A stretch of 58,965 nucleotides of DNA from Candidatus Ryanbacteria bacterium RIFCSPHIGHO2_02_FULL_45_17b (GTDB lineage: Bacteria > Patescibacteriota > Minisyncoccia > Ryanbacterales > 2-02-FULL-48-12): assembly GCA_001819815.1 (NCBI GenBank), contig MHNO01000010.1, forward strand, positions 67,847-126,811, in the 5' to 3' direction. This document shows positions 45,522 to 52,837 of this stretch, one piece after another; position 1 is the first letter of the stretch; each line of letters starts with the position of its first letter. Position numbers and translations under genes: made by a program. The notes under the pieces are model-generated. The model was not told the DNA's origin. It worked only from the letters and a program-made list of their open reading frames with translations, and searched no databases.

Positions 45522-46397
45522 ATGAACCGAAAAAAGATACAATGTGGCATTATTGGAACAGGCAATATCGGTATGGACCTGTTGTTTAAGGTGCGGCGGT
45601 CAGAATTGCTGGCATGCAGTATATTTACGGGGCGCGATCCGGAATCAAAAGGGATCCAGAAAGCGAAAGAAATAGGCATCAGAACGTCTGTTAATTCAAT
45701 CCAGGCCATTCTTGATGAGCCGGATATCTGCGAAATTGTTTTTGATACAACATCAGCAAAAGCGCACGCCATACACGCGCCCATCTTAAAGAAATTGGGC
45801 AAGTTTGTAATTGATTTAACTCCTTCCCGATTCGGCAAAATGTGCGTTCCTGTTATTGATCTTGAAGATGGCTTGCATTCCGAAAATATCAACATGGTTA
45901 CGTGCGGCGGCCAGGCAATAGCGCCTTTGGCAAAGGCGCTCATGGAAATTCATCCTGAAATAGAATATATAGAACTTGTTGCGGCAATTTCTTCCAAATC
46001 GGCCGGTTCCGGCACGCGCGCAAACATTGATGAATACACGCAGACAACAAAAGATGCTATTGAATATTATTCAGGGGTGCCTCGCGCAAAAGCGCTCATC
46101 ATTTTAAATCCCGCGGAACCTCCCATTCGCATGCATAATACCATGTATGCCGAAATTACTAATCCCAAGCTGGAAGAAATTATAAGAAAGGTTGCGGAGG
46201 TTGCCGCTCATATAAAAAAATATGTGCCGGGATATACGCTTGCTTTGGAGCCAACCTATGAGAATGGCCGCCTGACTATCATGGTAGAAGTCGAGGGCCA
46301 GGGAGATTATTTGCCCGCGTATTCCGGAAATTTAGATATTATTACTTCTGCGGCAGTTCGGGTTGCCGAAGAATACGCGAGAAAAAAATATGAATAA
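45522..46397 (+). CDS. Acetaldehyde dehydrogenase (acetylating), DmpF/MhpF-like
   Basis: GIIGTGNIGMDL, catalytic Cys in NMVTCGGQA, SAGSGTRANIDEYT, and ILNPAEPP. Confidence 0.85.
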   Translation: MNRKKIQCGIIGTGNIGMDLLFKVRRSELLACSIFTGRDPESKGIQKAKEIGIRTSVNSIQAILDEPDICEIVFDTTSAKAHAIHAPILKKLGKFVIDLTPSRFGKMCVPVIDLEDGLHSENINMVTCGGQAIAPLAKALMEIHPEIEYIELVAAISSKSAGSGTRANIDEYTQTTKDAIEYYSGVPRAKALIILNPAEPPIRMHNTMYAEITNPKLEEIIRKVAEVAAHIKKYVPGYTLALEPTYENGRLTIMVEVEGQGDYLPAYSGNLDIITSAAVRVAEEYARKKYE

Positions 46398-47406
46398 ACC
46401 AATTTTTTTCGATTCGACATTGCGAGACGGATCTCATGTGGTGCGGCATCAGATTAGCATTGAGACGATTACAGAGTATTGCAAAATGATTGACGGATCC
46501 GGCGTGTATGCGGTTATTGTAGGACATGGCAACGGCCTTGGCGCTTCCACGTTGCAAGTTGGCCGTTCTCTGCATTCAGATTTGGAGATGATATCAGCAG
46601 CGCGCGCGGCTCTTCATGAGACAAAACTCGGGGCTTTTATGCTTCCCGGCTTTGGCACCATAAAAGACGATCTTGCTCCCGCTTTGGATGCCGGAGTTGA
46701 TTTGGTTTGCGTGGGTGTGCATTGCACCGAAGCCGATGTAACACAGCAGTACATTGAATATGTGACGGGCAGGGGGAAAGAAGCTATTGGCGTGCTCATG
46801 ATGTATCACCGGGCACCCAAAGAGCGGTTGCTTGAGGAAGCGAAAAAAATGCAAAGTTACGGCGCGCGCGCGGTGATTCTTATGGATTCAGCTGGTTCCT
46901 CTACCGTAGATATGGTGAGGCAAACGGTTGAATACCTTGTTCGCCATTTACAAATTCCGGTCGGTTTTCATGCTCATAATAATTTAAGCATGGCGGTGGC
47001 AAATTCGTTTGTTGCCCTTGAGTCGGGCGCAACAATTATTGACGGCACCACGCGCGGTTTTGGCGCGGGCGCGGGTAATTGCCAGCTTGAAGCGGTGGTT
47101 GCGCTGTTGCAAAAAAATGGGATAGACGCCGGTGTGGAATTGTATAAGCTTTTAGACGCGGGCGAAAAAGTGCTGAAGCCGATTATGACAAAACCGCAGG
47201 GAATAGATCCGGTAAGCATCGTAAGCGGTTTGGCTGGCGTGTTTTCCGGTTTCGCGCCGCATGTAAAACGGGCGGCCGAAGAATTTGGGGTAGATCCCCG
47301 GGATATTTTTATGGAATTGGGCAGACGGAATGTAGTCGCGGGCCAAGAAGATATTATTGTTGATGTTGCCGTGGAATTGGCAAAAAGGCAAACTCAAAAC
47401 GTATGA
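46390..47406 (+). CDS. 4-hydroxy-2-oxovalerate aldolase-like DRE-TIM metallolyase (DmpG/MhpE-like)
   Basis: FFDSTLRDGSH, HCTEADV, GFHAHNNLSMAVANS, and GFGAGAGNCQLE. The start overlaps the upstream stop in ATGAATAA. Confidence 0.85.
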   Translation: MNKPIFFDSTLRDGSHVVRHQISIETITEYCKMIDGSGVYAVIVGHGNGLGASTLQVGRSLHSDLEMISAARAALHETKLGAFMLPGFGTIKDDLAPALDAGVDLVCVGVHCTEADVTQQYIEYVTGRGKEAIGVLMMYHRAPKERLLEEAKKMQSYGARAVILMDSAGSSTVDMVRQTVEYLVRHLQIPVGFHAHNNLSMAVANSFVALESGATIIDGTTRGFGAGAGNCQLEAVVALLQKNGIDAGVELYKLLDAGEKVLKPIMTKPQGIDPVSIVSGLAGVFSGFAPHVKRAAEEFGVDPRDIFMELGRRNVVAGQEDIIVDVAVELAKRQTQNV

Positions 47407-51185: not shown

Positions 51186-52097
51186 ATGTCTATTCTTGTT
51201 ACTAAAAAGACCAGAGCTCTTATACAGGGAATTACCGGAAAAGAAGGATTGCGGGCGCTCGAAGGCATGCGCGCGTGCGGTACAAAAGTTTTGGCTGGCG
51301 TGACGCCCGGTAAGGGAGGCCAAAACGCGGATGGTGTGCCGGTTTACAACACCGTGAAAGAGGCAATCCATCGGCATCCTTCTATTAACGCATCGCTTAT
51401 TGTAGCGCCCGCGCCGGCGGTAAAAAATGCGGCGCTTGAAGCAATTCGGCAAAAAATTCCTCTTCTTACTATCTTGACCGAACATGTTCCGGTTCGTGAT
51501 TCCGCAGAACTTTTGGCATTAGCCAGAAAGCGGGGAATTAGAATTATTGGCCCATCGTCTGTTGGTATTATTTCTCCGGGGGAAGGAAAAATCGGCAGTA
51601 TTGGCGGTGAAGATCCCACGCATTTGTTTCATCCGGGACCGATTGGCGTAATTTCAAAGAGTGGAGGCATGACCGCGGAAATTGCGGTTATATTGAACCG
51701 GTTTGGACTTGGCCAGAGCACAGTCCTTGGTATTGGAGGAGATCAAATTGTCGGATCGGACTTTGTTGATATCGTAAAACTTTTTGAAAAGGATTCGGAA
51801 ACGCGCGCTATTGTTGTTTTTGGGGAAGTGGGTGGCACCTATGAAGAACAACTTGCAGAATTCGTGCAAAAAGAAAAATTAAAAAAACCGATTATAGCTA
51901 TCGTGGCAGGAAAATTTACCGCTCTGCTTCCGCCAGGTACGGTGCTTGGCCATGCCGGCGCCATAGTTATGAAGGGCCGCGGGGGGTATGAATCAAAAGT
52001 GGAAGCTCTCCGGCAAGCTGGTGTTTTCATTGCAAACACTCTTGAAGATATTCCTCTATTGCTCAAAAAAAAGCTCCGTGGCAAGATAGCATCATGA
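51186..52097 (+). CDS. SucD-like CoA-binding subunit (citryl-CoA synthetase small subunit-like)
   Basis: QGITGKEG, SKSGGMT, and the phosphohistidine loop GHAGAIV. Confidence 0.8.
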   Translation: MSILVTKKTRALIQGITGKEGLRALEGMRACGTKVLAGVTPGKGGQNADGVPVYNTVKEAIHRHPSINASLIVAPAPAVKNAALEAIRQKIPLLTILTEHVPVRDSAELLALARKRGIRIIGPSSVGIISPGEGKIGSIGGEDPTHLFHPGPIGVISKSGGMTAEIAVILNRFGLGQSTVLGIGGDQIVGSDFVDIVKLFEKDSETRAIVVFGEVGGTYEEQLAEFVQKEKLKKPIIAIVAGKFTALLPPGTVLGHAGAIVMKGRGGYESKVEALRQAGVFIANTLEDIPLLLKKKLRGKIAS

Positions 52098-52837
52098 AAT
52101 GGAGAACGGCAATTAGTGTACAAAAAGATGGAGAGCTGTATATGCGGGGTGTTCGTTTGGTTGATCTCATCGGGAAAGCGAGTTTTGTAGAAGCTATTTT
52201 TCTCGCATTGCAAGGGCGATTTCCCAAAAAAAACGAGACAAAAATGCTGGATGCCGTTTTTGTATCCCTGATTGAGCATGGTATTGAAGTGCCCTCCGCT
52301 TTTGTTGCCAGAAGCGTTGCCTCAACGGGAAATTCTGCAAACGCGGCGATCGCCGCGGGAGTTCTCGCGATGGGAGATTTTCATGGAGGCGCAATAGAGG
52401 GAGCCGCCCGGTATTTGCAGTCGAAAGAAACGCCGCGCGGTATTGTCGCTCAAGCGCTCAAAAACAAGGAACACTTGCCTGGATTTGGCCACAAGGTGTA
52501 CAAAACCGAAGATCCGCGGACGCACGCTCTTTTTGAAAAGGCGCGGGAACTAAAATTACCTCAAACATATATAATGCGGGCTCGCGCAATAGAACGGGAA
52601 CTCAAGCGCGCGAGCGGCAATGGCATTCCGCTGAATATCGATGGGGCGGTGGCTGCTGTGATGTCAGAACTCGGGTTTGGTTGGCGGCTTGGCAAACCTT
52701 TTTTCATTCTGGGCCGTTTGCCGGGGCTTATTGCGCACATTGAGGAAGAGTATCAAAATGAAAAACCATATCGCCGTCTTGATTCCGAAGATGTTGAATA
52801 TGTGGGCTTACCTATCAAGAAGCACAATCATAAGTAA
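52094..52837 (+). CDS. Citryl-CoA lyase / short citrate-synthase-family protein
   Basis: LIEHG, GDFHGGA, and LPGFGHKVYKTEDPR. At 247 aa it has the size of a stand-alone Ccl. Confidence 0.75.
   Translation: MKWRTAISVQKDGELYMRGVRLVDLIGKASFVEAIFLALQGRFPKKNETKMLDAVFVSLIEHGIEVPSAFVARSVASTGNSANAAIAAGVLAMGDFHGGAIEGAARYLQSKETPRGIVAQALKNKEHLPGFGHKVYKTEDPRTHALFEKARELKLPQTYIMRARAIERELKRASGNGIPLNIDGAVAAVMSELGFGWRLGKPFFILGRLPGLIAHIEEEYQNEKPYRRLDSEDVEYVGLPIKKHNHK

Follow-up and report, generated by a model that had tools for sequence, protein, structure and literature searches.

In Pectobacterium atrosepticum SCRI1043, the acetaldehyde dehydrogenase ErwJ and the BphI-like aldolase ErwI are the proposed source of (R)-4-hydroxy-2-oxopentanoate (Steitz et al. 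2022, PMC9306805). This compound is accepted, and pyruvate rejected, by ErwE (WP_011093010; ErwI is WP_011093013), a YerE-like thiamine diphosphate (ThDP) enzyme whose acceptor in that study was a ketone analogue of CDP-4-keto-3,6-dideoxyglucose; the reductase ErwF completes erwiniose, and the scheme has been partly reconstituted (PMC9306805). Here we describe a seven-gene operon of Candidatus Ryanbacteria bacterium RIFCSPHIGHO2_02_FULL_45_17b in which genes for the same four enzyme families are followed by three genes that resemble those of the two-step citrate cleavage system of Hydrogenobacter thermophilus, i.e., citryl-CoA synthetase (CCS, subunits CcsA and CcsB) and citryl-CoA lyase (CCL). 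The operon lies in a stretch of 58,965 nucleotides (contig MHNO01000010.1, positions 67,847 to 126,811, forward strand), the whole of which was analysed and is called the window below. Our overall reading, held with rather more confidence than doubt, is that the locus makes an erwiniose-type C4-branched 3,6-dideoxyhexose for a surface glycan and that a recruited citrate-cleavage trio feeds this synthesis. The core of such a pathway is already known; what is new is its breadth across phyla, a predicted natural 4R signature in its aldolases, and a trio of this kind built into a glycan operon.

The seven-gene operon and its candidate branched-sugar genes

The list of open reading frames (ORFs), taken with their likeliest ATG starts, gives seven tightly packed + strand genes at 45522-52837:

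45522-46397, +, gene 1, ErwJ/DmpF-like acetylating acetaldehyde dehydrogenase
46390-47406, +, gene 2, ErwI/DmpG/BphI-like class II pyruvate aldolase (8-nt overlap with gene 1)
47403-49202, +, gene 3, ErwE/YerE-like ThDP carboligase (4-nt overlap with gene 2)
49213-50085, +, gene 4, ErwF/YerF-like extended short-chain dehydrogenase/reductase (SDR; 10-nt gap after gene 3)
50107-51183, +, gene 5, compact beta subunit resembling CcsA and the beta subunit of ATP-citrate lyase (ACL; 21-nt gap after gene 4)
51186-52097, +, gene 6, SucD-like alpha subunit (2-nt gap after gene 5)
52094-52837, +, gene 7, citryl-CoA lyase, 247 aa (4-nt overlap with gene 6)

The tight coupling of these genes had been pointed out in a preliminary description made from the sequence alone, and it stands, with gaps and overlaps of at most 21 nt. 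The family assignments given there for all seven proteins were upheld by profile searches, and the motifs that it quoted (NMVTCGGQA, GDG...NN and GHAGAI) are present in the translations, as is its 247-aa protein of citrate synthase fold.

Judged by its protein families and their neighbourhood, the four-gene core very probably encodes an erwiniose-type branched-sugar pathway. The DmpF-like dehydrogenase scores 380 bits with TIGR03215 (cutoff 282) and 165 bits with AcetDehyd-dimer, and its catalytic Cys lies in NMVTCGGQA; the DmpG-like aldolase scores 384 bits with TIGR03217 (cutoff 286) and carries the communication domain PF07836 (100 bits). The ThDP enzyme has three domains and the motif GDGS...FNNNGY, and it falls below every equivalog cutoff for acetolactate synthase (ALS), the best of these models, TIGR00118, giving 337 bits where 538 would be needed. 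Among solved structures the ThDP enzyme is closest to the YerE-like JanthE (8rph), at 370 bits versus 228 for the best ALS, and it is only 29-32% identical to the real IlvB proteins returned by a plasmid search, so the possibility, raised at the outset, that it would group with IlvB did not materialise. No ilv genes were seen in the window or in the Pfam-annotated loci of relatives, and the biosynthetic ALS/ilv reading was rejected on the grounds of cutoffs, identity and neighbours together. The SDR is assigned at the level of the family (Pfam Epimerase, 103 bits, with TGGSGFIG and YGRAK motifs).

Homologues of the ThDP enzyme were surveyed at 79 loci in species-representative genomes, and the counts that follow are among the matches listed. 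Wherever a close homologue (at least 54% identity to the window enzyme) has at least 3 kb of sequence upstream, homologues of DmpF and DmpG are found there, at about -2.4 and -1.4 kb respectively (40 of 40 loci). Where the flanks are long (at least 8 kb on both sides), RfbF and/or RfbH homologues lie within 10 kb in 23 of 24 close-homologue loci and an SDR homologue does so in 14 of the 24. A neighbour-joining tree of 91 sequences groups the ThDP enzymes linked to DmpFG, that of the window among them, in one clade with 100/100 support. Clade members without a visible DmpG occur only on contigs that end at the ThDP gene. Six more ThDP genes lie near a DmpG but outside the clade, and these are second copies, each accompanied by a clade member at its locus. 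A second, divergent ThDP enzyme was observed beside the DmpFG-linked one in loci L012, L015, L029, L043, L048 and L051, and the presence of two such enzymes in one glycan locus suggests two different acyl-branched sugars.

Among the matches listed, the module is present in at least about 50 species-level genomes belonging to many phyla, nearly always beside CDP-dideoxyhexose genes, so that the co-localisation with sugar genes that had been looked for in related genomes is seen in related and unrelated ones alike. The carriers belong to the Patescibacteria, Omnitrophota, Bacillota, Gammaproteobacteria, Planctomycetota, Verrucomicrobiota, Lentisphaerae, Elusimicrobia, Spirochaetota and Gastranaerophilales, and they include two cultured strains, Lachnotalea glycerini DSM 28816 and Clostridium gasigenes DSM 12272, which are places to look for an erwiniose-type sugar. 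When ErwE and ErwI sequences were sought, Pectobacterium was not among the matches listed from species-representative genomes, the plasmid search returned true IlvB proteins only and E. coli genomes gave no match. A literature search combining aldolase, dehydrogenase, ALS and O-antigen found no such paper.

The aldolase can be compared with characterized enzymes residue by residue. In an alignment with DmpG (1nvm), Arg17, Asp18, His21, His200 and His202 are conserved, and DmpG Leu88 and Tyr291, which correspond to Leu87 and Tyr290 of BphI, are replaced by Phe/Phe in the window aldolase. BphI position 290 is Phe in all 54 distinct aldolases from sugar loci, and position 87 is Phe in 40 of them, Tyr in 12 and His in two. 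Wild-type BphI is strictly 4S-specific; stereocontrol is lost in its Y290F variant, and the L87W/Y290F and L87N/Y290F variants are 4R-specific (PMC3962088). Because the pairing of Phe with an aromatic residue mirrors the engineered 4R-specific L87W/Y290F, we predict that the sugar-locus aldolases are 4R-selective, as a natural counterpart to the engineered 4R BphI. The predicted 4R aldol product is the enantiomer that ErwE uses. A role of the pair in aromatic meta-cleavage catabolism was rejected in view of Phe/Phe in place of the 4S-type Leu87/Tyr290; no catabolic meta-cleavage neighbours were seen in the window or in the Pfam-annotated loci of relatives.

Between the last glycosyltransferase gene upstream and gene 1 there is a spacer of 465 nt (45057-45521). 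In it lie a hairpin resembling a terminator, a 200-nt palindrome and the site that, in consensus scans performing at chance level, ranked as the most promoter-like of the region, and for this combination of elements the seven genes are probably a transcription unit of their own. An Rfam scan of the window found three tRNAs only, and the spacer gave no credible match. The palindrome (45137-45336) is about 200 nt long, nested and near-perfect, with arms of 26, 25 and 17 nt and a folding energy of -94 kcal/mol (z = -12.5); it is single-copy within the window and matched no Rfam family. The spacer is much shorter in the Ryanbacteria relative described below, and the palindrome may for this reason be an inserted element resembling a miniature inverted-repeat transposable element, or an insulator or terminator.

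The probable citrate-cleavage trio and its association with sugar genes

We consider it likely, from the composition of the three proteins, that genes 5 to 7 encode a citrate-cleaving unit. The lyase scores 279 bits with NF004869 (cutoff 212) and matches H. thermophilus CCL (6hxp) over its full length at 246 bits. It keeps the motifs GDFHGGA, GFGHKVYK..DPR and NIDGA, which align with the catalytic His/His/Asp region of citrate synthase, and its 247 aa span only positions 162-355 of the Citrate_synt model, the N-terminal part of citrate synthase being absent. The DPR motif of citrate synthases has a role in oxaloacetate binding. The beta subunit combines an ATP-grasp domain (PF08442, 102 bits) with a C-terminal citrate-binding domain (PF16114, 82 bits), and its best overall match is the large subunit of H. 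thermophilus CCS. Taken separately, the C-terminal domain scores 91.7 bits with the ACL beta subunit of Chlorobium limicola, 72 with H. thermophilus CCS and 30.8 with the beta subunit of succinyl-CoA synthetase (SCS), and the beta subunit and ACL beta have in common the motifs GGGAS, ANFT and RRxGP, which we take to be segments that bind citrate in ACLY. With SucC models the beta subunit scores 151 and 146 bits, against cutoffs of 370 and 376, and it has no PF00549 match. The alpha subunit has PF02629, PF00549 and the phosphohistidine loop GHAGAI, and reaches 300 bits with SucD models, below their cutoffs of 336/353.

The trio is therefore best described as a compact mosaic of the CCS/CCL type and not as a strict set of orthologues. 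Its earlier designation as a CcsAB + Ccl-type trio holds for the lyase and for the citrate domain of the beta subunit, but not for the alpha subunit, which is nearer to SucD than to CcsB. Two other identities were tried and rejected: an ordinary SucCD plus citrate synthase left over from a tricarboxylic acid (TCA) cycle, which the preliminary description had itself held up as a possible outcome (beta subunit below the SucC cutoffs, ACL-type C-terminal domain, short citrate-type lyase), and a lyase acting on a citramalyl-CoA-type substrate (DPR motif retained, beta subunit with ACL motifs).

Sequences of this kind fall into more than 120 clusters at 53% identity or more, and the named ones are all from Patescibacteria (Ryan-, Colwell-, Portnoy-, Sung-, Niyogi- and Spechtbacteria, and Minisyncoccia). 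About 80 metagenome loci all keep the same gene order, beta-alpha-lyase. Stand-alone trios have diverse neighbours, among them ribosomal proteins, tRNA synthetases, GlmS, a GNAT-family acetyltransferase and NeuB. When 36 trio loci lacking Erw genes were de-replicated to 29 lineages and neighbours were counted within 5 kb, the recurrent ones were GlmS (9/29 lineages), a CofD/YvcK-like protein (8/29), a 143-aa GNAT acetyltransferase (6/29) and NeuB (5/29). The recurrence of GlmS, GNAT and NeuB neighbourhoods suggests that in Paceibacteria the trio supplies acetyl-CoA for the synthesis of envelope amino sugars (UDP-GlcNAc or nonulosonic acids). No TCA genes were seen in the window or in the four Pfam-annotated trio loci, and the families that recur beside the trio in the 36 non-Erw loci include none. 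GlmS, the CofD/YvcK-like protein, the small GNAT protein, an NTP-transferase or NeuB was observed beside the trio in L087, L101-L112, L125-L133, L089, L131, L145, L146 and L155. In L089 two small proteins resembling the 23S-rRNA-intervening-sequence/bAvd family are inserted, at 10084-10470 and 11329-11712, so that one separates the alpha-subunit gene from that of the lyase and the other follows the lyase gene. A literature search on citryl-CoA enzymes in Patescibacteria, or the candidate phyla radiation (CPR), found no relevant description.

The association of the trio with branched-sugar genes follows the relatedness of CcsA. All CcsA proteins that are at least 65% identical to that of the window adjoin branched-sugar genes, standing beside the SDR gene or directly after the ThDP gene, and none of those at 62% identity or less do so. 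With the four sugar genes named by the last letters of their Erw counterparts, three layouts were found:

J-I-E-F-trio: the window, a 524-kb Candidatus Ryanbacteria contig (L001), L090/L091, L173 and L174 (in L090/L091 a gene for a family 2 glycosyltransferase, GT2, overlaps the lyase gene)
J-I-E-trio-F-NUDIX-GT2: L092, L095 and L169
Trio 146 nt downstream of a ThDP enzyme that belongs to another, YerE-like subfamily: L094

The eight sugar-linked CcsA proteins form one clade among 71 sequences (neighbour-joining, 200/200). Since they are monophyletic, the best reading of these sequences is that the trio was recruited once into a branched-sugar operon, in a Ryanbacteria-related clade of Paceibacteria, and was kept there through rearrangements. 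We favour selection for co-expression over inherited synteny as the cause of the adjacency. From the 524-kb Ryanbacteria contig the metagenome scan returned one trio locus, a hint that this relative's genome has no copy other than the embedded one.

Public databases do not make these families easy to recognize. In P0004, P0010, P0126 and similar records, ErwE-type ThDP enzymes are labelled "acetolactate synthase", whereas citrate-type beta subunits go under the names "succinyl-CoA synthetase beta subunit" and "hypothetical protein". Both families are systematically mis-annotated, and behind these large and widely misnamed groups stand candidate enzymes of glycan branching and citrate cleavage. 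Citrate-cleavage enzymes are usually taken as markers of autotrophic carbon fixation by the reverse TCA cycle: a compact trio that is common as a stand-alone unit in ultra-small symbionts, and was once built into a glycan operon, warns against such use, and it offers a testable handle on the origin of acetyl-CoA in reduced organisms.

The surrounding glycan locus

The region from about 11 kb to 53 kb of the window is one large surface-glycan locus, with many GT2, GT1 and PMT_2 glycosyltransferases, enzymes of nucleoside diphosphate sugars, methyltransferases and NUDIX proteins. The block from an RmlD-like gene to the lyase gene is syntenic with the Ryanbacteria contig L001, at 45-82% protein identity. 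The genes most relevant to the sugar acceptor and its export, and two further neighbours, are:

34172-34954, +, RfbF, glucose-1-phosphate cytidylyltransferase giving CDP-glucose (TIGR02623 301.6 bits, cutoff 300.25)
34951-36000, -, flavin reductase of the Old Yellow Enzyme family (N-ethylmaleimide-reductase-like, 246 bits, below cutoff)
40001-40978, +, RfbG-like SDR, CDP-glucose 4,6-dehydratase-like (TIGR02622 208.7 bits, below the cutoff of 278)
40989-41930, +, second extended SDR, epimerase or reductase candidate (Pfam Epimerase 156 bits; below all NCBIfam cutoffs)
41927-42877, +, GT2 polyprenyl-phosphate-type glycosyltransferase, PgfS/ArnC-like (Pfam Glycos_transf_2)
42916-44115, +, RfbH/E1-like sugar 3-dehydratase, probably of the cluster-less (ColD-like) type (best PDB match E1, 3bcx, 246 bits)
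44115-45056, +, second GT2 polyprenyl-phosphate-type glycosyltransferase (NF047588 210 bits; ArnC model 124 bits)
52938-58964, +, giant YD/Rhs-type ORF of more than 2000 aa

The preliminary description had placed the operon directly downstream of CDP-deoxyhexose genes, which is correct as to the locus but not as to distance: the 465-nt spacer intervenes and rfbF is 10.5 kb upstream of the operon. The RfbG-like SDR matches Pfam GDP_Man_Dehyd/Epimerase and has a syntenic counterpart, 74% identical, in L001. The first GT2 enzyme matches NF047588 (PgfS) at 228 bits and the ArnC model at 147 bits, full-length and below cutoff in both cases. The RfbH-like protein scores 339 bits with NF011936 (RfbH; cutoff 423) and has a His aligned with E1 His220, the mark of a dehydratase and not of an aminotransferase. 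In the alignment to E1, the Cys-rich segment WGRDCYCAPGCDNTCKKRF of that enzyme is replaced by the Cys-free WGRASSLLGESKASENLVKRF; we take the Cys-rich stretch of E1 to hold the ligands of its 2Fe-2S cluster. No gene for an E3 reductase was seen at the sugar locus, and we infer from these sequences that the protein may be ColD-like, with cluster-independent 3-deoxygenation. Homologues of it, at 48-60% identity, were observed in L026, L054, L057 and L082.

Several other features of the locus may be recorded. The Old Yellow Enzyme-family gene lies between rfbF and the RmlD-like gene, a suggestive place for an ene-reductase in a deoxysugar locus without E3. A run of DUF4956, VTC-domain and CotH-kinase/beta-helix genes lies inside the glycan locus (27436-31413, -). 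NUDIX hydrolase genes are found at 12928-13557 (-), 15578-16135 (+) and 37707-38456 (+), and one is kept beside the branched-sugar genes in the relatives L001, L092 and L095; these genes may serve nucleotide-sugar housekeeping. The giant ORF follows directly after the lyase gene and extends past the window end. By eye it has a signal or transmembrane start, repeated "DxNGDG" (FG-GAP/VCBS-like) motifs and YD/Rhs-type repeats, and it looks like a toxin-delivery or surface protein.

Proposed pathway, rival readings and known systems

The pathway that we propose draws on homology, clade membership and gene context. RfbF, the RfbG-like dehydratase and the cluster-less RfbH-like 3-dehydratase would together yield CDP-4-keto-3,6-dideoxyglucose, the families being seen and the substrates presumed. 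The trio, if synteny is a guide, would feed the pathway by cleaving citrate, with the use of ATP and CoA, to acetyl-CoA and oxaloacetate. The DmpF-like enzyme would reduce acetyl-CoA with NAD(P)H to acetaldehyde, a step that would be unfavourable alone, and the DmpG-like aldolase would join acetaldehyde to pyruvate to give (4R)-4-hydroxy-2-oxopentanoate. The YerE/ErwE-like ThDP enzyme would decarboxylate this acid and attach the resulting C4 unit at C-4 of the 4-keto sugar, and the irreversible ThDP-dependent decarboxylation would pull the sequence from acetyl-CoA to the branch forward. The SDR would reduce the branch carbonyl after carboligation, and the PgfS/ArnC-like GT2 enzymes would load the sugar onto polyprenyl phosphate, presumably for export. 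The order from acetyl-CoA through acetaldehyde and a 4-hydroxy-2-oxo acid to ThDP-dependent addition and SDR reduction is the one that the preliminary description had put forward; it finds support here, and it is the erwiniose scheme that had already been published (PMC9306805). The new branched-chain sugar that was expected there gives way to the simplest expectation, and the product is probably an erwiniose-type sugar rather than a new class.

It is known that class II pyruvate aldolases decarboxylate oxaloacetate through a pyruvate enolate, as in the aldol step (PMC5065237). Since it is the same enolate, oxaloacetate might, speculatively, be decarboxylated on the metal of the aldolase, with a decarboxylation-driven aldol reaction to follow, and both halves of citrate could then enter the C4 branch. 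That they do, and that the trio is the main acetyl-CoA source of Paceibacteria, working on scavenged citrate and wired to envelope glycans without a TCA cycle, is an extension of the scheme that we consider doubtful.

On the evidence of synteny, we lean slightly toward a specific coupling of the trio to the sugar pathway. The citrate feed suggested in the preliminary description is linked to the pathway in one clade only, and the view expressed there that such enzymes are odd in a CPR-like genome does not apply to the trio, which is a common unit of Paceibacteria. The most serious rival, unlikely in our judgement but deserving of weight, is that the trio is a general housekeeping unit for citrate cleavage and acetyl-CoA supply, e.g., for N-acetylation of amino sugars, that merely sits beside an erwiniose-type module. 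At about 70 loci of Paceibacteria the invariant three-gene unit does stand alone among diverse neighbours, the copies linked to sugar genes make up one clade and reflect one historical event, and the Erw module occurs without an adjacent trio in other Patescibacteria; the finding that the embedded copy is apparently the sole one on the 524-kb contig suggests the same. A mere neighbour, however, would not be expected to have kept its place through at least two rearrangements (the trio inserted between genes for the ThDP enzyme and the SDR; a glycosyltransferase gene overlapping the lyase gene), to be spaced in the window by gaps and overlaps of 21 nt or less that imply co-transcription, or to deliver exactly the compound that the first enzyme of the pathway uses. 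It is improbable that the trio instead runs synthetically (acetyl-CoA and oxaloacetate to citryl-CoA, then to citrate and ATP) or acts on citramalate or malate, so that its link with the sugar would be other than acetyl-CoA. In principle the CCS and CCL reactions can run in either direction, the alpha subunit is of a generic, SucD-like kind, and in length the beta subunit falls about 70 residues short of H. thermophilus CcsA, but the ACL beta motifs GGGAS, ANFT and RRxGP, the His/His/Asp and DPR of a lyase that is similar over its full length to a characterized citryl-CoA lyase, and recurrent neighbours that are consumers of acetyl-CoA (GNAT, nonulosonic-acid genes) and not TCA enzymes all speak against it. 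Least credible, to the point of being negligible, is that the seven genes are remnants of central metabolism (ALS, a meta-cleavage DmpFG pair, and SCS with citrate synthase) without a role in sugar synthesis. Public names and the high DmpF and DmpG scores, which exceed the NCBIfam equivalog cutoffs, would lead one to this view, whereas the sub-threshold ThDP enzyme that is distant from IlvB, the window free of ilv, TCA and aromatic-catabolism genes, an aldolase signature unlike that of catabolic DmpG/BphI, the ACL-type C-terminal domain of the beta subunit beside a 247-aa lyase that lacks the N-terminal part of citrate synthase, and a module tied to CDP-sugar genes across many phyla lead away from it.

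Several observations weigh against the reading that we prefer, namely an erwiniose-type pathway fed by a recruited trio. The monophyly of the sugar-linked CcsA proteins amounts essentially to one event, and inherited synteny could explain the linkage without functional coupling. At some 70 other trio loci no Erw gene lies within 10 kb, and conversely an adjacent trio was found in none of the 24 long-flank close-ThDP loci in species-representative genomes, among the matches listed. In L094 the YerE-like ThDP enzyme probably uses pyruvate, so that a link with the trio need not involve acetaldehyde. Genes for a citrate transporter or for the handling of oxaloacetate were not seen in the window. 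Archaeal SCS alpha subunits (292 and 272 bits) match the alpha subunit better than H. thermophilus CcsB does (213 bits). Both the RfbG-like and the RfbH-like protein fall below their equivalog cutoffs, and likeness to ErwE and ErwI was judged by their published description and not by sequence identity. The consensus scans for promoters and terminators did no better than chance, so that the operon structure is read from gene spacing alone.

Among the closest known systems is the Erw locus: it has the same four-enzyme set, there beside genes for CDP-4-keto-3,6-dideoxyglucose and a glycosyltransferase and here beside candidates for such genes, and the aldol product predicted here is the 4R enantiomer that ErwE takes. 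It differs in gene order, which is J-I-E-F here and, to go by the consecutive accession numbers of P. atrosepticum, E, F, J, I there, and the window differs further in its Patescibacterium host, a 3-dehydratase without Fe-S cysteines, the lack of an E3 reductase and the appended citrate-cleavage trio. YerE and YerF, which belong to yersiniose A synthesis in Yersinia pseudotuberculosis, and JanthE are alike in the ThDP fold and in carboligation to the ketone of a 4-keto-3,6-dideoxy sugar, but YerE uses pyruvate as donor (a C2 branch) and has no DmpFG partners, and the ThDP homologues without DmpFG fall outside the clade of the window enzyme. The window pair resembles DmpFG/BphIJ (1nvm) in that its aldolase is about 40% identical to DmpG and keeps both the catalytic Arg/Asp/His/His/His and the communication domain, while its dehydrogenase keeps the catalytic Cys; it differs in a presumed biosynthetic role, in Phe/Phe for Leu87/Tyr290 and in the absence of catabolic partner genes. 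The CcsAB + Ccl system of H. thermophilus (6hxq, 6hxp) shows the same three-protein architecture, with a full-length match of the lyase, an ATP-grasp plus citrate domain and the phosphohistidine loop, whereas the beta subunit of the window is some 70 residues shorter, its alpha subunit is nearer to archaeal SucD than to CcsB, and its trio stands not in a reductive TCA context but in the envelope-sugar neighbourhood of a minimal genome.

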